64,000 bases of DNA from Candidatus Aminicenantes bacterium UBA6228 (GTDB lineage: Bacteria > Acidobacteriota > Aminicenantia > Aminicenantales > Saccharicenantaceae), in contig DJWO01000014.1 of NCBI GenBank assembly GCA_002441005.1, positions 328,130-392,129 of the forward strand. The letters are read 5' to 3'. Of this stretch, positions 9,684 to 20,320 are shown piece after piece. Made by a program: the position numbers and the translations under genes. The first letter of the stretch is position 1. The number at the start of each line of letters is the position of its first letter. Under the pieces are notes generated by a model that did no database searches, was not told the origin of the DNA, and saw only the letters and a program-made list of their open reading frames with translations.

Positions 9684-10224
9684 CCTGCAATTCCCCGGCT
9701 GCGAAGTCTTCGCTTAAAACCCGTATTTGACTGTATCCACGGCTGGCCAGATTTTTAATGAGCTGGCTCAGATCAGCTCTACTGGCCAGTCCGGCTTTTA
9801 TTCTAAATTCAAAACCAGCTTCATTCCGGCTCGGATTTAAATTGACCAGATAAGCGCCCGCCGGCAAAGCCTGTTCCAGATTATCAAAAAAGATTGTCCA
9901 CGAAAAAGATTTCCTGGCCAGCAAAGTATTGACTTCATCTACAGCTGTTTTCAACTGCTTTTTTAAATTATCCGTTTCCCGGGTTAGCTGATTGTGTTGA
10001 GAAGAGATAACTGACTTTTCATCAGCCAGACGCTGGTAGCTGGTCTCCATTACCCGGTCAAGGGAAAAATTCTTAATATTTAACACTATCAATAGAATCA
10101 ATAAGATCCCGGTCAGCACTCCCCCTCCAACACTCAGAAACCGGAAAGCCCTTAAATTCCGGCGGGGCTGGCTGGCCAGATTAATAATAAGATCCCAGCC
10201 GGCCTGATTTTCTTTAGCCAGCAT
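9649..10224 (-). CDS. pilN: PilN-like pilus assembly protein
   Basis: 191 aa with an N-terminal TM anchor and a coiled-coil. Its start overlaps the pilM stop (10224), which fits the PilM-binding partner. Confidence 0.6.
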   Translation of the reverse strand: MLAKENQAGWDLIINLASQPRRNLRAFRFLSVGGGVLTGILLILLIVLNIKNFSLDRVMETSYQRLADEKSVISSQHNQLTRETDNLKKQLKTAVDEVNTLLARKSFSWTIFFDNLEQALPAGAYLVNLNPSRNEAGFEFRIKAGLASRADLSQLIKNLASRGYSQIRVLSEDFAAGELQVEMDFQYAETK

Positions 10225-11111
10225 TATTGCCCTCCAAGGAGCGGCGCCAACCTGGGATACTCAGGATATAATTCGGCAATTTCAACGCCGGTAGTCTGTT
10301 CAATCGTCCCGATTAAGCTGGTTGTTTCAGGTAAGCCCGATCTGAGAAAAATTACCTGTGGTTTTTTCTTATTTTTACTCTCAATAAACTGAATAGTATT
10401 TTCAACTTCATTAAGAATCTGGCTATCCAGGCCGGCTGCTTCTGGCCAGAGGGGCTTCTGGCGGTAAATAGACAATACCTGGCCGGCTACTCCCACCAGA
10501 CTGAGATAATCATAGTCGGCATCGATCAAAAGATAATCCGCGACTTCTTTCCCATTCAGCAAACTCAGAAGTGAAATAGAAGGAATAGTAACCTTGCCAG
10601 GCTGCAGTTTCTTCTGGCGGAAAATTTCTTCATAATCTCTGACGACAGCCAGCCCGGAACAAACCGCTAAAACTTTCTTCCCGTCTTGTGAATCAAATGT
10701 TTGATAGGAATAGCGAAGACCGGCTAGCGGTTGAGCCAGAGCTTTTTCCAGACGCCACTCAATAAATTTTGTCAAATCATTTCCAGATAACGAGCCATTT
10801 TCCGCTGAAAAAATTAAAGCCCTGGCACTTATTTCCGGCAAAACTATTGAAATTGAATTTCCAGCCGGTTTCAGCTGATTTATAGACTGATCAATAAGCT
10901 CTTCAATTACTGCCGGTTGTTTAATATTCGGTTGTAACCAGTTGGCTTCAATCACCCCTTCTGGCAGGCGAGCCTCGAAATATGATTTTTCACTTCCCCT
11001 GGCAGTGGCTCCAGGCCGGAAGCAGGCAAAAAATGACGGAGAAAGCTGGAAAACAGCCGAGGGGACGGGCGGCTCGAAGAAGAATTTTTGCCAGCGGTTA
11101 AAAATGCTCAT
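10224..11111 (-). CDS. pilM: Type IV pilus assembly protein PilM (actin-like ATPase fold)
   Basis: 295 aa with a PilM/FtsA-like fold. It is the first of the MNOPQ genes. Confidence 0.7.
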   Translation of the reverse strand: MSIFNRWQKFFFEPPVPSAVFQLSPSFFACFRPGATARGSEKSYFEARLPEGVIEANWLQPNIKQPAVIEELIDQSINQLKPAGNSISIVLPEISARALIFSAENGSLSGNDLTKFIEWRLEKALAQPLAGLRYSYQTFDSQDGKKVLAVCSGLAVVRDYEEIFRQKKLQPGKVTIPSISLLSLLNGKEVADYLLIDADYDYLSLVGVAGQVLSIYRQKPLWPEAAGLDSQILNEVENTIQFIESKNKKKPQVIFLRSGLPETTSLIGTIEQTTGVEIAELYPEYPRLAPLLGGQ

Positions 11112-11114
11112 TGG

Positions 11115-12725
11115 CTACTCAACAAAGGTCACCTTATTCAAATCCTTCAGGCTGGTCACGCCGGAGAAAAGCTTCTCCAGCCCTGACTGCCGGATAGGAA
11201 CCATACCTTCTGACTCAGCCAGTTTCCTCACCTCAGACAGAGGTTTTCGAACCAGAATCATTTCCCGGATTTCATCCGAAAGTTCCAGCAATTCAGCAAT
11301 AGCCGTTCTTCCCCGGTATCCAGTCTGGTGGCATTCCGGGCAGCCCCGGGGCTCATAAAAGACCTGGTTTCTGTATTTTTCAGGTGACAGGCCGGAGAGC
11401 TCCAGCGTTAAATCATCATACTGGACAGGAGCCTTGCACTTGGGACATAAGACCCGCACCAGCCGTTGAGCCAGAATGCAATTAAGAGACGAAATAAAGC
11501 TATAGGGATCAACATGCATATGTAGGAACCGGCCAATGACATCAAAAACATTATTGGCGTGAACAGTGGTAAAGACCAGATGCCCGGTCAGGGCTGACTG
11601 GATGGCAATCTGAGCTGTTTCCGGGTCGCGAATTTCGCCCACCATGATTTTGTCCGGGTCATGGCGAAGAATTGATCTTAAGCCACGCTCGAAAGTCAGG
11701 CCTTTCTTCTCATTGACCTGAATCTGAGTGATACCCTCAATTTGATATTCAACCGGATCTTCAATGGTGACAATCTTATCTTCAGGCGATTTGATCTCGG
11801 TTAAAGCTGCATAGAGAGTGGTGGTTTTCCCGCTGCCGGTCGGGCCGGTGACCAGGATCATCCCATAAGGCTGGACGATATACCGCCTGAATTTTCTTAG
11901 AATTTCATCAGAAAAGCCAAGCAAATCAAGCCTCAACTCGGCAAAAGCTTCGGTGATCATTTCCTTATCGAGGATTCTGATGACGGCGTCTTCGCCATAA
12001 ATACAAGGCATAATCGAAACCCGGAAATCAATCGTTTTATCTTTAATTTTGAGCCGGAACCGGCCATCCTGGGGCACCCGCCGCTCGGAAATGTCCAGGT
12101 CAGACATAATTTTTATCCTGGAAATAATCAGCGATTGAAATTGCCGGTCAATAGGTTCCATGGCTTCAGTCAAAACACCATCGATCCTGAATTTTATCCG
12201 GACAACATTCTCTTTCGACTCGATATGAATATCACTAGCCCTTTTTTGAACGGCAGTAAAAATGATGGTATTGACCAGTTTGATGATCGAGCCATCCTGT
12301 TCGGTGAGTTTCTCAATGGTAATAACGTCCTCTTCTTCGCCACTCTCCTTTTCTACCACCTGGTGAATAAAACCCTCAGTTGCTTCTTTGAGGACCTGAG
12401 AAGCCGTCTCGCTGCGCCGCAGGGCTTCCTGTACAGCTCTCAGGCTGGCGGCATAGACCGCCACCTTCCGGCTGAAAAAAGTCTCAATGCTGTCAATGGC
12501 TGCCAGATCGGAGGGATCGGCCATGGCTATTTTTAAGACCCGGCCATCATCCTCCAGAGGCACAAAATTATAGTGATACAAAAAATCAACTGGAAAAGAT
12601 TGAACCAGCTCCCGGTTTAGTTCAAAACTCCCCAGGTCAAGATAATTAACATGATATTTTTCGGCCAGGCGCCTGGCTTCATTTTCTTCGGCCTGAAGCA
12701 ACCCGTCAATGTCGCCTTTGGTCAC
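11115..12725 (-). CDS. pilB: Type IV pilus assembly ATPase PilB (GspE family) with an N-terminal GspE-N domain
   Basis: 536 aa. Walker A (GPTGSGKTT), Asp and His boxes, and a tetracysteine motif (CPKC...CPEC) are present. Confidence 0.92.
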   Translation of the reverse strand: MTKGDIDGLLQAEENEARRLAEKYHVNYLDLGSFELNRELVQSFPVDFLYHYNFVPLEDDGRVLKIAMADPSDLAAIDSIETFFSRKVAVYAASLRAVQEALRRSETASQVLKEATEGFIHQVVEKESGEEEDVITIEKLTEQDGSIIKLVNTIIFTAVQKRASDIHIESKENVVRIKFRIDGVLTEAMEPIDRQFQSLIISRIKIMSDLDISERRVPQDGRFRLKIKDKTIDFRVSIMPCIYGEDAVIRILDKEMITEAFAELRLDLLGFSDEILRKFRRYIVQPYGMILVTGPTGSGKTTTLYAALTEIKSPEDKIVTIEDPVEYQIEGITQIQVNEKKGLTFERGLRSILRHDPDKIMVGEIRDPETAQIAIQSALTGHLVFTTVHANNVFDVIGRFLHMHVDPYSFISSLNCILAQRLVRVLCPKCKAPVQYDDLTLELSGLSPEKYRNQVFYEPRGCPECHQTGYRGRTAIAELLELSDEIREMILVRKPLSEVRKLAESEGMVPIRQSGLEKLFSGVTSLKDLNKVTFVE

Positions 12726-12741
12726 GGCTATCTCCTTTTTG

Positions 12742-13944
12742 TTACCTGGTTATTCTAACGATATTAAAAATTGGCAAATAAATCGAAAGAATCATCACCG
12801 CTGCCACTAGTCCGATAAAAATGATGATCACCGGCTCGATCAGAGAAACCAGCGTTTGTATTTTATCGCGCAAAGCCTGATCATAAAAATCAGCCACTTC
12901 ACTTAACATGCCGGGCAAATTAGCCGAGCTTTCACCAATCCGGATCATATCGGTGGCCAGAGGCGGAAAAATTCCAGCACTGGCCAGAGAATCATAAAGA
13001 CTCTGCCCGCTGGTCAGTTTTTCTGCCACCGTTTCGAGCCTGGAGGAAATATAGCGGTTAGTCACGGCCAGCCTGGCCACATTGACCGAGGGGACCAGAG
13101 TAATGCCGGCTTCCAGCAGCAACCCGAGAGTCCGGCTGTAAAGAGACACAGCTGAATCCTGAACTAAATAACGAGAGTAAGGCAGATGAAGTTTCAGCCG
13201 GTCATTCAAAATCATAAACTCCGGCCGGCGGCGCAAACTAATTATGGCCAGGACGATTACTATCACCAACAGCACCAGCCAGAGCAGGTTTTTCTGCAAA
13301 AAGGTAGCCAGAGAGATTAAGCCCCTGGTTATAGCCGGCAGTTGAGCCCCAAAATCAGCATAAAAAGAAGCAAATCTGGGCAAAACTAAAACGACCAGAA
13401 TGCCAATCAGGATTAGCGAAAATATGATCAGCAGAGTTGGATAGAGAAGTGCTGACCGGACCCTGGTGCGGGTTTGCGTTATGACTTGAGCATATTCGAG
13501 GTAACGCTTGATCGACCCGGGAAGGTTGCCGCTTCTTTCCCCGGCCAGGAGAGAAGCTGTATAAACCTTGGAAAACAGGTGTTCGTAGGGAGAAAAAGCT
13601 TCCGACAGCGTCCGGCCTTTTCTGATTTCCTCCTCCACCTGGCCGACAATTTCCCTCAGGTAGGGATTTTCAATTCTTTTTTCCATCAGTTCCAGGCTCT
13701 TTAGGACCGGATAGCCAGCTTTGAGCATAGCCACCAGTTCCTGATTAAAAAGAATAAACTCCTGCTGCTTGATTTTGCGGCGAGATAAACGAAGGCGGCC
13801 GAGACTTATTTCTTTCCGGATAGACAGGACATAGAGCCCCTCCGCTTCCAGATGTTTACGGCATTCAGCTGGCGAGGCGGCCCTGATTGTTTCCCTGACA
13901 ATTCGCCCCTCAGGAGTTATAAGACGGCAGAAATAACCAGGCAT
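12742..13944 (-). CDS. pilC: Type IV pilus inner-membrane platform protein PilC (GspF family)
   Basis: 400 aa with two GspF repeats and three TM segments. It is the first gene of the operon. Confidence 0.9.
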   Translation of the reverse strand: MPGYFCRLITPEGRIVRETIRAASPAECRKHLEAEGLYVLSIRKEISLGRLRLSRRKIKQQEFILFNQELVAMLKAGYPVLKSLELMEKRIENPYLREIVGQVEEEIRKGRTLSEAFSPYEHLFSKVYTASLLAGERSGNLPGSIKRYLEYAQVITQTRTRVRSALLYPTLLIIFSLILIGILVVLVLPRFASFYADFGAQLPAITRGLISLATFLQKNLLWLVLLVIVIVLAIISLRRRPEFMILNDRLKLHLPYSRYLVQDSAVSLYSRTLGLLLEAGITLVPSVNVARLAVTNRYISSRLETVAEKLTSGQSLYDSLASAGIFPPLATDMIRIGESSANLPGMLSEVADFYDQALRDKIQTLVSLIEPVIIIFIGLVAAVMILSIYLPIFNIVRITR

Positions 13945-13975: not shown

Positions 13976-14011
13976 ATCTTAAGATAGCCTGAAGCTATTG
14001 TCAATTGACAA
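13976..14011 (-). promoter_or_regulatory. Putative sigma-70 promoter of the pilC-Q operon, embedded in the perfect palindrome TTGTCAATTGACAA (13998-14011)
   Basis: On the minus strand: TTGACA, a 17-bp spacer, TAAGAT, then about 30 nt to the pilC ATG. The 14-bp palindrome provides TTGACA on both strands. Confidence 0.5.
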
Positions 14012-14174
14012 CTGCCTGGCCAGGGTTTGACCCAAGTGTCCTTCACCGGCCTGAAAAACCTAAGTTAATAAAAAACCATCAGGCTGGTCAGACCCTGTCA
14101 TCAATAGATGTTCACTTAATGACTTAAGGTGGCCAGGAGGATAAGGGTTTCAAAAAATAAATTTTTTAAAAATA

Positions 14175-14210
14175 GTTGACAAATGTCATAAATTGTATTA
14201 TGTTGTCAAC
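14175..14210 (+). promoter_or_regulatory. Promoter/operator of the XRE-family gene: -35 TTGACA (14176-14181) and -10 TATGTT/TATTAT, bracketed by the inverted repeat GTTGACAA (14175-14182) ... TTGTCAAC (14203-14210)
   Basis: Read directly from the sequence. The RBS AGGAAG lies 6 nt before the ATG at 14239. Confidence 0.55.
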
Positions 14211-14238: not shown

Positions 14239-15507
14239 ATGGGAACATCTAACGACAGATCAAAGGTGGATGCGACCTTCCCGTTAAGGTTGAGAGCAGC
14301 CCGTTTGAAGGCCGGCCTTAGTCTCGAGGACCTGGCCTGCAAGCTCGGGGGAATAGTCAGCCGCCAGGCCATTGCCAAGTATGAAAAGGGCCTGGCCGCC
14401 CCATCTCCCGAAGTCCTTGAACACCTCCTCCAGGTCCTCGAGATCCCGGCTCCACCTGAAGAGGTCACTTCTTTAAGTTGTTTCACAGATAATTTTAGAG
14501 CTCGAAATGTTTCTTATAAAAGAAAAAGTAATACTGCCAGGCAAGACCTCAACTTGAAAAAAACCGGGGCTGACAACCAGCTAGCTGAAGACAAAAAGCT
14601 GGAGTGGTTGGAACCGACTCGGGTTTATTTTTGCCTCAATAGACAGGACCTTCAGCCGGCCAACATTCAAAAGGATAAGGAAAAAGAATCATTTATCTTC
14701 CGCTGCGGTTTGAAGCTTAGCTCGAAACAACTTACTGCCCTGAGAGTCCAGATCGCAGAAAAGATGGAAAAATATCTCCGTCTTGAATCGCTGCTTAAGG
14801 CAGAACTTAAGTTCACGGTTGGATTGAGCAATTCTTCCCTTGCCAACCCTGACCAAACTGAACAGGCTGCCGGGGAATTACGCCAGCTCTGGGATCTGGG
14901 AACTGGCCCGGTAGTCAATATTCTAACTTTTCTTGAAGACCGGGGAATAAAAATTTTTAGGTTAGCCGGTCCGGAAGGTTTTGAAAGCTGTTCTGGATTC
15001 TATCTTGACTCACCTTTTATTGCCGTCAATGACAACCTGCCGGTTGACCGGCTAAGATTTAAAACCTCAACTGAGCTGGCTCAGATTTTATTTGGTTTCT
15101 CTGAAGATCCAGCGCAGTCGAAACTCTATAACCGCTGGGCGGCGGCTTTTTTAATGCCGGCCAGGAAGCTCGAAGAATATTTTTTGCCGGCTGGCCGGAA
15201 AATTGCCCTGAGTGAGCTGGCCGAAATAAAATTGCGCTATGGAATTTCTTTGCAGGCCATCATGTACCGGGCTTATGATCTTGGCCTGATAACCGAGCGG
15301 CGGTTAAGAGCCTTTAGAGAATTGCTCAATCAAAAAGGCTGGCTGACTAAAGAACCAGTGGCTTACCGGGGCGAAGAGTTCCCTCAGCGGTTTAAAAGAC
15401 TGATTCATTATGCTATCTCCTCAGAAATTCTTGACCTTAAAACAGCCGCTTCTTTGGCCGAAACTACGCCGGAAGATTTGTGCCAGGAGATTGGAGACAT
15501 TTTTTAA
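14239..15507 (+). CDS. XRE-family HTH protein fused to a degenerate ImmA/IrrE-type (M78-like) metallopeptidase domain that lacks the HExxH motif
   Basis: The N-terminus is a classic HTH_XRE (LRAARLKAGLSLEDLACKLGGIVSRQAIAKYEKG). The C-terminal region has ImmA/IrrE-family hallmarks (YNRWAAAFLMPARKLEEYF; LAEIKLRYGISLQAIMYRAYDLGLI). At the position of the family's Zn-binding HExxH the sequence is STELAQ (...RLRFKTSTELAQILFG...), so both catalytic His residues are absent. Confidence 0.65.
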   Translation: MGTSNDRSKVDATFPLRLRAARLKAGLSLEDLACKLGGIVSRQAIAKYEKGLAAPSPEVLEHLLQVLEIPAPPEEVTSLSCFTDNFRARNVSYKRKSNTARQDLNLKKTGADNQLAEDKKLEWLEPTRVYFCLNRQDLQPANIQKDKEKESFIFRCGLKLSSKQLTALRVQIAEKMEKYLRLESLLKAELKFTVGLSNSSLANPDQTEQAAGELRQLWDLGTGPVVNILTFLEDRGIKIFRLAGPEGFESCSGFYLDSPFIAVNDNLPVDRLRFKTSTELAQILFGFSEDPAQSKLYNRWAAAFLMPARKLEEYFLPAGRKIALSELAEIKLRYGISLQAIMYRAYDLGLITERRLRAFRELLNQKGWLTKEPVAYRGEEFPQRFKRLIHYAISSEILDLKTAASLAETTPEDLCQEIGDIF

Positions 15508-15657
15508 CCGGGCCGGGGCCCTGATTACCCTGGCTGTCAGGTTAGAGGGGAGTTGATGATGGGTTTTATTTTGAACATTCCGCCTTAGCGAAAGAGACAG
15601 GAACAGGGGAAATTGACTTAATTTATCAGGTCTTTTTTTGGAAAGAAGGAGTCTATT

Positions 15658-16734
15658 ATGCCAAAACTTATTGATTCTTATCTTTTAGAAATGGAAATTG
15701 GCCAGCCCCAGACAGCTGGAGAGATAGCCGTTTTTCCACTTAAATCCAGCCGGAATCCTGGTCCTGAGTATATAACTTTAGCCGAGGCCCTGGCCAGCGG
15801 CCAATTAACGGTCACCGAGGTCAGCCACGGTGGATCTGTCCCGGAGTTAAAAGCGGTAAATCAAGGGGGAAAAGCGGTGCTGATGCTGGATGGCGAGGAA
15901 CTGGTTGGGGCCAAACAAAACCGGGTCCTGAATACTACTATCTGGGTGGCGCCAGGAACCAGCCTGGTTATTCCGGTTAGCTGCGTGGAAAGAAACCGCT
16001 GGTCCGGTCTTCATCATCCCGTAGAGAAATCAGACAATGTGATGGTTCATTCCATGCGGCTTAAAAAAGTTCAAAGTGTCAATAAGAACTTAGAAAAAAA
16101 GGCCGGCTTTAAAAGCGATCAGTCTGAAGTCTGGCGGGAACTGGATAGGGCTTGTTACTTACTTAACGTGGATTCACCCACCGCTGCCATGAGAGATATT
16201 TATGAAAGGCGGAAGACTGAACTAGAAAACTACTTAAAGGCTTTCAGGCCCGTTCCCGGCCAGCAAGGCTTGCTGGTTTTTTGGGCTGGAAAACCTCTGG
16301 GCTGTGATTTCATTTCCAGAGAAGAAGCCCTGGCCAGTTTGTTTCAAAAGCTGCTTAAAAGCTACCTGCTCGAAGTCATAATGGTCAGTCAGGATAGAGG
16401 AACCGGAGACCAGGAAGGTAAAAGCCAGAAAGTTAAGGGTCCAGCCAGACAGAAACCAACTGTTCCTGGAATAAAAAAAGCCAGAAACTTCCTGTCCAAA
16501 GCGGCTCAAGCCGAAGAGAAAAGATATAAAGCTACCGGTTCAGGTCAAGCCTGCCGCTATTGCCATCAGGATTTAGCCGGGGCTTCGCTGGAAATAGACA
16601 ATTTTATTCCCCATTTTGTTTTTTTAGCCACCGAAAAAGGTTCGCGGTTCAGAAATTACCGGAATAGAGAAAATTTCTCCGGATTAAGGGACAGGAAAGC
16701 CTTCCTTTCCAGAAGTGGAGATGACCTTAAATAA
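15658..16734 (+). CDS. Uncharacterised protein with an N-terminal conserved domain that I recall as ARPP-1-like (domain of unknown function) and a C-terminal CxxC region
   Basis: 358 aa with a strong RBS (AAGGAG). The N-terminal roughly 115 aa (AVFPL...ITLAEALASGQLTVTEVSHGGSVPELKAVNQGGKAVLMLDGEELVGAKQNRVLNTTIW...VIPVSCVERNRW) carry the signature I associate with the ARPP-1-like family, written here from memory and not database-checked. The C-terminus contains GQACRYCHQD. No signal peptide is seen. Confidence 0.5.
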   Translation: MPKLIDSYLLEMEIGQPQTAGEIAVFPLKSSRNPGPEYITLAEALASGQLTVTEVSHGGSVPELKAVNQGGKAVLMLDGEELVGAKQNRVLNTTIWVAPGTSLVIPVSCVERNRWSGLHHPVEKSDNVMVHSMRLKKVQSVNKNLEKKAGFKSDQSEVWRELDRACYLLNVDSPTAAMRDIYERRKTELENYLKAFRPVPGQQGLLVFWAGKPLGCDFISREEALASLFQKLLKSYLLEVIMVSQDRGTGDQEGKSQKVKGPARQKPTVPGIKKARNFLSKAAQAEEKRYKATGSGQACRYCHQDLAGASLEIDNFIPHFVFLATEKGSRFRNYRNRENFSGLRDRKAFLSRSGDDLK

Positions 16735-17470: not shown

Positions 17471-20320
17471 ATGAAGAGATCTTCTGGTTTTTATTTTTTC
17501 CTGTTAAGCGTGACTCTCCTGACTGTTCTTGGCTTCATCAATATCTCCCGCAAACTGGCCTGGAAAGAACCATACGACGGAGTTATCTGGGCAGAGGGAT
17601 CGAATGGCCTGATTGCTGAAAAAGTCTCCGAAAACAGCCCGGCCTATCTGTCGGGCATCAAGCCTGGCGATATTCTCTTCTCCATCAATAGCACTCCGAT
17701 CAGGAACCGGATTGAATACGTTAAAATGCTCTGGGTGCTGGATCGCCTGGAACAAAAGGCACTCTATCAGATAGGAAGAGAAGGGACCATCCTGGCTCCT
17801 TCGTTCTATTTAGAAAAAAAGGGAGTCAGCTCAAGCTATGTTTATCTGATGCTGCTCGGATTAACCACTCTGGCCATCAGCCTGATTGTTTTCATCAATT
17901 CCAGAAGGAAATTTTCCAGTCTCTATCTGTTTTTTTACCTGGTTTTGCTATCTCTATATTCATTCTATGTCTTTTCTCCAACTGGCCAGATGGATTCGCT
18001 TGACCAGATATTTTTCTGGCTGGATAAAATAGCCATTATTGCTTTCCCTCCTCTTCTTTTAAATTTCTTCTTTATCTTCCCCCAAAAAAAAGAGATCATT
18101 GCTCATCCCGGGGTTCTGGCCCTGTTCTATCTTCCCGGTTCTATCTTGCTTTTGGCTAATATCTGCCTGGTAGCCGTCTTTCAGTCAAAACTGGGTGACG
18201 CCCAGATACTGAATTACCAGAGAATTCTGGACAAGGGTGAGTTATTTCACCTGGCCACTTATAGCCTTATAGCCCTGTTCATGATCATTTACGATGCCAT
18301 CAGTACCAGGAACCTTTATATCAAAAACCAGCTTAAGTGGATAGCTGGAGGCCTGGGGCTGGGAGCCTTGCCTTTTTCTATCTTTTATATTCTACCTTTC
18401 CTGCGAAATGCCCTGCCGTCATCAGCCGGCCAGCTCAGTGTACTTTTTCAGATTTTTGTGCCGGTCACTCTGGCTTATTCAATTTCCCGTTACCGGTTAA
18501 TGGACTTTGAGGTTCTGGTTAAAAAGGGCTTGACTCTGATTATTTCCTTCACTCTGATCGCCCTGGTCTATTTTCTGGTCAGCTCTCAAACTGAGTTGTT
18601 CTCAGAAAACAGGCTAAATGCCATTTTACTTGGTTTGCTGGCTATCATCCTGGGAGCAACTCTTTTCACTCCTCTATCAGAAATGGTTCAGACTCTGGTT
18701 GACCGGGTAATTTACAGGCGAAGTTATGAATACCGCCGGACTTTGCTGCTTATTTCGAGCCAGCTAAACCGGGAAAGAGATCTTAACCGCCTGGTCAGCT
18801 ATCTGGTTGAAACTATATCGAAGGCGCTTTCCCTGAAAAGCCTGGGGCTTTTTCTGGCGCGAGAAGAGCGGCCAGACGAGTTTTACCTTCTTCGGGCGGC
18901 AGGGGAACCTTATCTGACTTTGCCTGTTGTGCAGTTAAGTCCGGCCGAAAGTCAGGAGCTACAAAAAACGGAGTTTATATCTTTCTTGCCTGGAACTGAA
19001 ACGCCGGCTCTGGCTGGTATTTTTACTTCTCTTAAGGATAAAGGGTTCAATAACTTCTTGCCTCTCAAGCTGGAGAACAGAATAATTGGTTTTCTGGCTC
19101 TCGGGGATAAAATTGACGGTTCTTTTCTTTCGGGTGAAGACCGGGAACTTCTCCGGACAATTTCGCCTTCCGTTACTTTAGCCTTGGAAAATGCCTATCT
19201 CTATAACCAGGAAATTATCCGCTCCCAGGAACTGCAACGTCTTAAAGATTATAGCGATAACATTATCGAGAGCCTGACCGTGGGTGTGGCCGTCATTGAT
19301 GAGAGTGGACTGGTCACCGGCTGGAACCGGGTCCTGGAACAGCAGTTTGGCCTGAGCCGTTCTCAGGCTTTAAACCGCCATCTATCTGAGGTTATTGGTT
19401 TAGAGAACTTCCAGGCTATTTTTCCTCCAGAAACCCAGGCAGAATACCAGCTGCTGAGCGAAATTACTCTGACCACCGCCCCCGGCCAGAAAAAAATCTT
19501 TGATGTGGCCAGAACACCTTTGCTTGATAACCATTTCCGGGCCTATGGGACCATTATCGTTTTTGAAGATATAACTGAGAAAATCGGGCTGCAGCAGCAA
19601 ATGGTGACCTCCGAAAAACTGGCTTCTATTGGCCTGCTCTCGGCCGGCGTCGCTCATGAGATTAACACCCCGCTGACCGGTATTTCCAGCTATGTCCAGA
19701 TACTTCAAAAAAAACTGACTGAAACTAACTATCTTCAGATCCTGAAAAAGATAGAAGATCAAACTGACCGGGTCAGCAAGATAGTCAAAAACCTGCTGAG
19801 CTTTTCCCGCAATCCCGCCGACCTGGCCTTCCACCGGATTGACCTCAAAGAGAGCCTCGAAGAAATTATTTCTCTCATTGACTACCGGCTAAAAAGCTTG
19901 AATATTAACCTTTCCCTGGACTTAAAGCCAGTCATCATTTACGCCCAGAGAGAAAGGCTCCAACAGGTTTTTATTAATATCATTCTTAATGCTCTGGATG
20001 CTATGCCGGGCGGCGGGCAGCTGACCATCCAGACCAGACAGCAGGAAGCCCGGGCCATAATCAAAATAACTGATACCGGCCTGGGCATCAAGCCTGAACA
20101 TTTGCCCAGAATTTTTGACCCATTTTTTACCACCAAAGGAATAGGCAAAGGGACAGGCCTGGGTCTGTCCATCAGCTTTGCCATTGTCAAAGAACACGAA
20201 GGGCAAATCCTGGTAGACAGCCAGGTTGGTCAGGGGACAACTTTTACCATCATTTTGCCGGCCAACCTGTCCGAAAAAAACTTAAGGCCAGCTAATCCAG
20301 GAGGAATTGGTCATGAATGA
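17471..20320 (+). CDS. Sensor histidine kinase: N-terminal TM helix, periplasmic PDZ-like domain, multi-pass membrane module, GAF, PAS, HisKA and HATPase_c
   Basis: 949 aa. PDZ-like segment: GIKPGDILFSINSTPI. At least 8 hydrophobic helices follow. H-box: SAGVAHEINTPL. N, G1 and G2 boxes: NIILNALDAM, DTGLGI, GKGTGLGLSIS. A promoter-like TTGATT-17-TATATT lies at 17420-17448. Confidence 0.85.
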   Translation: MKRSSGFYFFLLSVTLLTVLGFINISRKLAWKEPYDGVIWAEGSNGLIAEKVSENSPAYLSGIKPGDILFSINSTPIRNRIEYVKMLWVLDRLEQKALYQIGREGTILAPSFYLEKKGVSSSYVYLMLLGLTTLAISLIVFINSRRKFSSLYLFFYLVLLSLYSFYVFSPTGQMDSLDQIFFWLDKIAIIAFPPLLLNFFFIFPQKKEIIAHPGVLALFYLPGSILLLANICLVAVFQSKLGDAQILNYQRILDKGELFHLATYSLIALFMIIYDAISTRNLYIKNQLKWIAGGLGLGALPFSIFYILPFLRNALPSSAGQLSVLFQIFVPVTLAYSISRYRLMDFEVLVKKGLTLIISFTLIALVYFLVSSQTELFSENRLNAILLGLLAIILGATLFTPLSEMVQTLVDRVIYRRSYEYRRTLLLISSQLNRERDLNRLVSYLVETISKALSLKSLGLFLAREERPDEFYLLRAAGEPYLTLPVVQLSPAESQELQKTEFISFLPGTETPALAGIFTSLKDKGFNNFLPLKLENRIIGFLALGDKIDGSFLSGEDRELLRTISPSVTLALENAYLYNQEIIRSQELQRLKDYSDNIIESLTVGVAVIDESGLVTGWNRVLEQQFGLSRSQALNRHLSEVIGLENFQAIFPPETQAEYQLLSEITLTTAPGQKKIFDVARTPLLDNHFRAYGTIIVFEDITEKIGLQQQMVTSEKLASIGLLSAGVAHEINTPLTGISSYVQILQKKLTETNYLQILKKIEDQTDRVSKIVKNLLSFSRNPADLAFHRIDLKESLEEIISLIDYRLKSLNINLSLDLKPVIIYAQRERLQQVFINIILNALDAMPGGGQLTIQTRQQEARAIIKITDTGLGIKPEHLPRIFDPFFTTKGIGKGTGLGLSISFAIVKEHEGQILVDSQVGQGTTFTIILPANLSEKNLRPANPGGIGHE

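Follow-up and report, generated by a model that had tools for sequence, protein, structure and literature searches.

A helix-turn-helix regulator with a zinc-less M78 domain and its ARPP-1 partner gene in Candidatus Aminicenantes

What does a repressor fused to an M78-type protease do once the zinc site of the protease is gone? The prevailing model for ImmA/ImmR, IrrE/DdrO, and CapP/CapH, extended to fused proteins, is that a signal-activated M78 domain cleaves an XRE-type repressor and thereby releases the repressed genes irreversibly. The question is raised by a stretch of 64,000 nucleotides from Candidatus Aminicenantes bacterium UBA6228 (contig DJWO01000014.1, positions 328,130 to 392,129; hereafter, the window), in which an ATG-start open reading frame (ORF) at positions 14239 to 15507 of the plus strand encodes a 422-amino-acid protein with an XRE-type helix-turn-helix (HTH) domain and an M78 domain devoid of its zinc ligands. 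The regulator probably acts, a reading given moderate confidence here, as a non-proteolytic autorepressor or sensor that controls the downstream ARPP-1 gene, with the dismantled M78 scaffold kept as a binding module.

The M78 domain and its missing zinc site

A preliminary description of this DNA had placed the protein in the ImmA/IrrE (M78) family and had called it a fusion to an HTH, and both assignments hold. Pfam models for both domains matched the one 422-residue ORF: HTH_3 (residues 18 to 70; E value, 1.1e-12) and HTH_31 (residues 17 to 70) mark the DNA-binding domain at positions 14287 to 14448, approximately residues 17 to 70, and Peptidase_M78 (“IrrE N-terminal-like,” PF06114, COG2856) marks residues 233 to 345 at positions 14935 to 15273, with a score of 39.4 bits (gathering score, 22; E value, 6.2e-10) and a match spanning positions 2 to 122 of the 123 in the profile. 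PHROG 2439, a family of transcriptional regulators, also matched the protein (1.7e-46). The AlphaFold2 model, which was built on a full-length alignment of 83 sequences (A1), had a mean predicted local distance difference test score (pLDDT) of 82.5 and was confident except in the linker: pLDDT was 84 to 96 in the HTH domain, below 50 in a disordered and fast-evolving linker (residues 76 to 147; positions 14464 to 14679), and 88 to 96 in a conserved C-terminal extension of about 70 helical residues (residues 351 to 422; positions 15289 to 15504), in which W368, E372, P373, and E380 are invariant in A1. No Pfam family was found past residue 345. The top Foldseek matches of the model were CapP (7t5t; E value, 2.5e-4) and PprI/IrrE (8sln; E value, 3.5e-3). 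A phmmer search of the Protein Data Bank (PDB) with the single regulator sequence retrieved only HTH proteins, and family profiles were needed to reach CapP and IrrE; profiles from A1 and from a second alignment of the M78 domain only (A2; 71 sequences) both matched CapP (7t5t), IrrE (3dte), PprI (8slm), and the HTH-M78 fusion 9vzy. Among solved full-length HTH-M78 fusions, chain 9vzy_A, a 393-residue “HTH cro/C1-type domain-containing protein,” was the nearest in the profile search (E value, 6e-7); its motif is intact (LHEFVH), and no paper on this entry was found in the literature search.

The preliminary description had further proposed that the catalytic HExxH reads STELAQ in this protein, so that both zinc-binding histidines are absent, and that the flanking family motifs are retained. 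The active site of IrrE consists of His82, Glu83, His86, and Glu113 (PMC12828697). Nucleotides 15067 to 15120 translate as STELAQILFGFSEDPAQS, and in the profile alignments the CapP segment RMRFTQAHELGH and the IrrE segment RQRFTLAHEISH sit over the regulator segment RLRFKTSTELAQ, while in the next helix CapP IEAQADLFASYLLMP and IrrE IETLCNVGAAALLMP sit over QSKLYNRWAAAFLMP. The translation, these alignments, and the comparison of clades given below agree that the family motif A-H-E-L-[GA]-H is replaced by S277-T-E-L-A-Q282 (positions 15067 to 15084). By this mapping, made from profile alignment and secondary structure, His82 of IrrE corresponds to T278, Glu83 to E279, His86 to Q282, and Glu113 to S294 (positions 15118 to 15120), the last through alignment of I-E113-T-L-C-N in IrrE with Q-S294-K-L-Y-N in the regulator. 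All three zinc ligands are thus gone, because T278, Q282, and S294 occupy their columns; the loss extends beyond the two histidines to the third ligand, and the general-base glutamate alone survives. A Cys-His pair found family-wide before xFAxAFLLP is Y297-N298 in the regulator, and a conserved family cysteine beyond the motif helix is F285. The flanking motifs NRWAAAFLMP and YGISLQAIMYRA are kept and are near-invariant across the family. Elsewhere in the domain, the profile alignment showed neither an intact HExxH nor another conserved metal triad, and no replacement histidine or cysteine is conserved among the zinc-less relatives: their only conserved histidine is H390, which relatives with an intact site also have, and they have no conserved cysteine. 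E279 is invariant in 83 of the 83 sequences in A1. As judged from this alignment, the regulator cannot act as a zinc metallopeptidase.

The orthologues likewise bear out the loss of the histidines. A search of 5.8 billion proteins returned 109 relatives, all of whose named sources were Candidatus Aminicenantes or Saccharicenans, and included a previously recorded protein identical to the regulator (P0001). In the 36 closest clusters (51 to 100% identity), the first histidine was absent in 36 of 36; the motif was x-E-L-A-Q, with x-E-L-A-H in a few clusters and x-E-L-A-E in one. The next tier of relatives (approximately 37 to 49% identity) had A-H-E-L-[GA]-H. A genome scan with one genome per GTDB species yielded 80 loci. 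ARPP-1 was found downstream in 48 fetched loci (47 plus the window), of which 29 had H-E-H-E at the catalytic columns (the intact clade) and 18 lacked the first histidine and the third-ligand glutamate (the degenerate clade); a nineteenth degenerate locus, L021, had no partner gene. At the third-ligand column, glutamate was present in all 29 intact loci, and S, L, I, G, or V was present in all 19 degenerate loci. L040 (Candidatus Tepidiaquacella proteinivora, CP054675) had K-E-F-E at the catalytic columns (AAKELAF), with the third-ligand glutamate kept. Loss of the zinc site is a lineage trait of Saccharicenans-type Aminicenantes, found in 19 of 19 species loci.

In a neighbor-joining (NJ) tree of the M78 and C-terminal regions, drawn without support values, the partner-linked proteins formed one clade, with the degenerate members monophyletic inside it and L040 as a long-branched sister. 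The second histidine is still present in the earliest-branching degenerate members, L001 and L022, which suggests that the site decayed stepwise. Loss of zinc ligands recurs in the HTH-M78 subfamily, including members with no downstream ARPP-1. Single-histidine losses were seen in two distant relatives (LHEFAQ in L058 and LHELTN in L064). In L021 (JACIYK010000139, 2940 to 4196), the zinc-less regulator is followed by a convergent gene of 664 codons in place of ARPP-1, and related intact proteins in L006 to L008 and L053, also with no ARPP-1, are followed by a short ORF of approximately 76 to 105 codons.

The clades differ in other features as well. Several acidic residues, E189, E313, D347, and E379, are fixed only in the degenerate clade, and positions 313 and 379 are K/R-to-E charge reversals. 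The linker is about 40 residues shorter in the zinc-less clade, from which two linker motifs of the intact clade are absent: ATWGASPL, straight after the HTH, and xFRR(Q/R)GLL. Examples with both motifs are L002, L023, and L026, compared here with window residues of approximately 70 to 150. ATWGASPL and FRRxGLL could be candidate sites of self-cleavage or recognition that became dispensable. The loss of these motifs and the fixed acidic residues would fit a switch of mechanism and are treated here as leads rather than as mechanistic evidence.

Selection, the operator-like repeat, and the downstream genes

Pairwise Nei-Gojobori ratios of nonsynonymous to synonymous substitution rates (dN/dS) within the degenerate clade were 0.03 to 0.13 for the M78 core (residues 151 to 350), 0.00 to 0.07 for the C-terminal helices, which are the most constrained region of the regulator, 0 to 0.24 for the HTH domain, and 0.37 to 0.61 for the almost neutral linker. 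The dead M78 domain is under purifying selection no weaker than that acting on the HTH domain, and these low ratios therefore mark a maintained pseudoenzyme and not a decaying gene. That the gene is decaying, or that its motif is an artifact of annotation or sequencing, is a practically negligible explanation given the full-length ORF in 19 species-level loci, the dN/dS of about 0.1, the independent record of an identical sequence, and the confident AlphaFold2 model.

Upstream of the gene, at positions 14175 to 14210 of the plus strand, lies a promoter with an operator-like inverted repeat, GTTGACAA-N20-TTGTCAAC. The sigma-70-like promoter has a −35 element, TTGACA, at 14176 to 14181 and a −10-like element, TATGTT, at 14199 to 14204, and its 10 matches to the 12 consensus positions are the best in the region. 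The 8-nucleotide arms of the repeat are 100% complementary and bracket the promoter. The pattern TTGACAA-N18-22-TTGTCAA occurs once in the 64-kilobase window, versus 0 occurrences in 100 shuffles, and 51 of 107 fetched loci have a degenerate form, with TTGTMWAC as the second arm, approximately 50 nucleotides ahead of the regulator gene. The element precedes orthologues of both clades, in surrounding DNA that is otherwise unrelated, and also distant relatives from Desulfobacterota, Spirochaetota, Bacteroidota, and Pseudomonadota; this conservation across phyla suggests a recent horizontal spread of a module linked to a PIN gene. In the operator-bearing loci from L055 to L088, the partner is a PIN/DUF3368 gene that overlaps by 4 nucleotides, and one of the contigs with the operator before an HTH-M78 gene is labeled Promethearchaeota (L080). 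Residues Q43, A44, K47, Y48, and E49 of the HTH recognition helix are invariant or near-invariant in both clades (A1). An HTH_3 domain and a palindromic operator at the gene's own promoter, the features expected of an XRE-family repressor, are both present, the operator being putative; together with the near-invariant recognition helix, the operator provides good comparative evidence that the gene is autoregulated.

A perfect palindrome with the same half-site as the operator, TTGTCAATTGACAA, was observed at positions 13999 to 14012, in the divergent promoter region of an upstream minus-strand gene (12742 to 13944; PilC/GspF-like from its translation), where a promoter-like minus-strand site (14004 to 13976) overlaps it. 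The distance is unchanged in the close relatives L009 and L010, which also have the palindrome. The palindrome could offer the regulator a second place to bind, or it could be no more than a pair of back-to-back −35 hexamers.

The spacer of approximately 150 nucleotides between the regulator and ARPP-1 holds a strong ribosome-binding site, GAGGGGAG (positions 15545 to 15552), followed by a micro-ORF at 15556 to 15588 of the plus strand that encodes MMGFILNIPP*. Comparison of the spacers of L001 to L057 showed that a micro-ORF of 10 to 13 codons is kept in most ARPP-1-linked loci and is absent from L025, which has a 43-nucleotide spacer, and from L040. The encoded peptide is MMG...(K)IPP* in the degenerate clade; in the intact clade it is MMGRFExGYT* in most members and M(P/L)GTSKNNPP* in three. 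In the degenerate clade, the entropies at codon positions 1, 2, and 3 were 0.50, 0.73, and 1.27, the I-P-P codons vary at position 3 only, and the invariant glycine codon of the intact clade varies at its wobble base only. This restriction to wobble positions indicates that the micro-ORF is translated and that the peptide is under selection. A C-terminal Pro-Pro-stop is a slow-termination motif. The micro-ORF may encode a regulatory leader peptide or a third component of the system. The spacer was also examined for a structured RNA, attenuator, or riboswitch, and this reading was rejected: the minimum free energy was no better than that of shuffled sequences (z score, 0.56), and no Rfam family was found in the spacer. 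The sole Rfam match, a DUF3085 RNA at 14280 to 14366 of the minus strand, scored 22 bits (gathering score, 40.6; E value, 0.85) and was dismissed as a chance hit.

The conserved partner gene, at positions 15658 to 16734 of the plus strand, encodes a 358-amino-acid protein of the ARPP-1 family (PF20208; E value, 1.5e-85). The family is defined by an absolutely conserved cysteine and glutamine, and its members are predicted to be Cys/Gln enzymes that operate in conflict systems (PMC9503650); both residues are present here as the invariant C109 and Q87. The gene lies immediately downstream of the regulator in the 48 loci counted above, whose outer flanks are unrelated. Elsewhere, ARPP adjoins a WYL transcription factor, a two-gene logic of regulator plus ARPP (PMC9503650).

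Readings of the cassette and their weight

In the favored mechanism, the ancestral arrangement would have been one in which a stress signal led the M78 domain to cleave the HTH or repressor, freeing the effector. The Saccharicenans lineage, to which the state of Candidatus Tepidiaquacella is related, would then have lost the proteolytic switch and kept the operator and the repressor half along with the scaffold, which would serve as a module for dimerization and for binding a signal or partner. Control of ARPP-1 would thereby have become reversible, through binding or allostery, in place of irreversible, through cleavage, by analogy with PrpR/RamB, which sense coenzyme A (CoA) through a dead IrrE-like scaffold. 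The preliminary description had already read the protein as a pseudoprotease kept for binding or sensing. The low dN/dS, the retained HTH and operator, the intact partner, and the precedent of PrpR/RamB support that interpretation, and the loss of cleavage is predicted from the missing ligands.

Several points weigh against a regulator that represses and senses and does not cut. The left half-site of the operator is a consensus −35 hexamer, so that promoter strength may account for part of the conservation; repression at this site is deduced from conservation and position alone. The presumed absence of all hydrolytic activity is likewise read from sequence, and the invariance of Glu279, the single feature for which a pseudoenzyme gives no account, would be unexplained if catalysis were wholly gone. 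The 150-nucleotide spacer with its own micro-ORF could put the main control of ARPP-1 after transcription start and not at the HTH. Finally, the regulator may have other targets, because L021 has it without ARPP-1.

The best surviving alternative, which still appears rather unlikely, is that the pair is a toxin-antitoxin or defense module like RosmerTA: ARPP-1 would be a toxin that the pseudo-M78 scaffold neutralizes by direct binding, and loss of the protease would have removed only the trigger. Such an account overlaps the favored one and makes protein-protein neutralization, rather than transcriptional control, the main job of the regulator. The regulator resembles RmrA of RosmerTA in having an XRE HTH at the N terminus and an M78 domain at the C terminus of one polypeptide, encoded upstream of a variable partner gene, and 14 hidden Markov models for RmrA in PADLOC match it (best match, 6.8e-40); it differs in having no zinc site and a partner, ARPP-1, that is not a recognized RmrT. 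Relatives are paired with PIN and PemK toxins, and the nearest ones outside Aminicenantes share the operator and overlap a PIN gene, whereas here there is no tight bicistronic operon and the two non-overlapping genes stand approximately 150 nucleotides apart with a separate micro-ORF between them. ARPP has been found in conflict systems (PMC9503650), but the window ARPP-1 had no match in PADLOC or PHROG, and its toxicity is hypothetical. An orphan regulator such as that of L021 would be expected if antitoxins survive alone, and a deletion of RmrA was not obtainable in the screen of Millman et al. On the other side, at least 48 Aminicenantes species genomes (one representative per species) carry the pair, the NJ tree has a phylum-level structure consistent with vertical inheritance, and the pair is absent from viral contigs and has apparent housekeeping genes, and no defense island, as its neighbors in the window. 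The cassette looks chromosomal and vertical within one phylum, another difference from RosmerTA.

It is less probable again that the regulator is a substrate, like ImmR, DdrO, or CapH, that is cut in trans, in its linker, by an intact M78 protease or some housekeeping protease encoded at another place in the genome, the dead M78 domain serving only for dimerization or recognition. Proteases of the family do act in trans on XRE repressors (ImmA/ImmR, IrrE/DdrO, and CapP/CapH), and a long disordered linker would offer an accessible cleavage site. That linker is almost neutral, however, with dN/dS of up to 0.6; the candidate recognition motifs ATWGASPL and FRRxGLL are missing from the degenerate clade; and no second M78 homologue was found within the window.

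A speculative extension, and a long shot, concerns the micro-peptide: in a three-component cassette, the M78 domain might have this peptide as its cognate ligand or substrate. The Saccharicenans domain, once a peptidase that processed the peptide (or its own linker), would then have become a peptide receptor gating ARPP-1. If true, this would be a natural and datable transition from enzyme to receptor with both states extant in sister clades.

Very improbable is a surviving hydrolase in which Glu279 and the clade-specific acidic residues E189, E313, D347, and E379 form a non-canonical catalytic or metal site: the invariance of E279 and the fixation of acidic residues in the degenerate clade alone, two of them as K/R-to-E reversals, are offset by the loss of the three canonical ligands and of the neighboring cysteine and histidine with no conserved histidine or cysteine substitutes, and we know of no zincin that functions without HExxH.

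Origin, known relatives, and significance

The more distant relatives of the regulator keep HExxH. Those at 25 to 30% identity in the protein search have a PemK or DUF3368 gene directly after them, and those at 30 to 39% identity in the genome scan, which share the operator, are followed by a gene of approximately 165 codons that overlaps the regulator stop codon by 4 nucleotides and whose products match PIN/DUF3368 weakly, with one match that passes the Pfam threshold. This arrangement is the “Xre-COG2856 fusion + PIN/RelE” module that was predicted by Makarova et al. in 2009 (PMC2701414) and Matelska et al. in 2017 (PMC5499597), and such modules were later shown to be toxin-antitoxin or defense systems (Millman 2022; Ernits 2023, PMC10440598). 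The most economical history would have three steps: an ancestral HTH-M78 plus PIN module with the present operator, a swap of the PIN gene for the micro-ORF and ARPP-1 in Aminicenantes, and loss of the zinc site in the Saccharicenans lineage. A phage origin was considered and rejected: no member of the ARPP-linked clade was found on viral contigs, where relatives have at most 34% identity and none is linked to ARPP.

From their translations, the genes at 10224 to 13944 of the minus strand look like a type IV pilus or type II secretion system (PilM-like, a GspE/PilB ATPase with a GPTGSGKT Walker motif, and PilC/GspF-like), and the gene at 17471 to 20320 of the plus strand looks like a 949-amino-acid membrane sensor histidine kinase. 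The translations of the flanking genes gave no sign of a prophage or defense island in the window. The absence of members on viral contigs and these apparent pilus/secretion and sensor-kinase neighbors make the cassette look chromosomal and largely vertically inherited.

The closest functional parallel is PrpR/RamB of Mycobacterium tuberculosis (ScfR family), which combine an XRE HTH with a DUF955 domain of IrrE-like structure, in which the HEXXH residues are “not conserved” and a cavity binds CoA beside a [4Fe-4S] cluster (PMC6765138). The regulator likewise joins an XRE HTH to a DUF955-like scaffold without HEXXH, and PrpR/RamB can thus be taken, by analogy, as a precedent for a dead M78 domain acting as the sensor of a transcription factor. 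Unlike PrpR, which has a GAF-like/DUF2083 domain and a cysteine motif with [4Fe-4S], the regulator has neither, and no PrpR chains were among the matches of the A1 and A2 profiles in PDB sequences. Because the regulator is not a PrpR-family member (no GAF/DUF2083, no conserved cysteine), its loss of zinc is independent of that in PrpR; it is also much more recent, with the intact sister clade still extant.

ImmA/ImmR of ICEBs1, IrrE(PprI)/DdrO of Deinococcus, and CapP/CapH of cyclic-oligonucleotide-based antiphage signaling systems (CBASS) share with the regulator the M78 fold, the flanking motifs, and the pairing of an M78 domain with an XRE repressor over a stress or conflict locus. ImmA, IrrE(PprI), and CapP are, however, active zinc proteases encoded apart from the repressors that they cleave, whereas here the two parts are fused and the site is gone. 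The neighborhoods of WYL transcription factors and ARPP (Iyer, Burroughs, Anantharaman, Aravind 2022) similarly place a ligand-sensing transcription factor next to ARPP, but the regulator here is HTH-M78, not WYL, and an HTH-M78 partner is absent among the ARPP contexts given in PMC9503650. No paper describing zinc-less ImmA/IrrE-type domains besides PrpR/RamB was found in a literature search of incomplete coverage, and a 2024 review covering metallo-pseudopeptidases makes no mention of M78. The principle of a zinc-less M78 domain in a transcription factor was already established by PrpR/RamB; new here are the matched intact and degenerate clades, the HTH-M78/micro-ORF/ARPP-1 cassette, and the deeply conserved operator.

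M78 joins the metallopeptidase families known to yield pseudoenzymes. HTH-M78 fusions are among the commonest regulators or “antitoxins” beside defense and toxin genes, and their need for protease activity is mostly assumed. The matched sister clades share the operator, architecture, micro-ORF, and ARPP-1, with the zinc site as their most conspicuous difference, and a comparison between them would reveal both the contribution of the protease activity and the work left to the scaffold in its absence. ARPP-1, a predicted enzyme with no solved structural relative, gains a defined candidate regulator and a conserved operator, through which the conditions of its induction can be tested.

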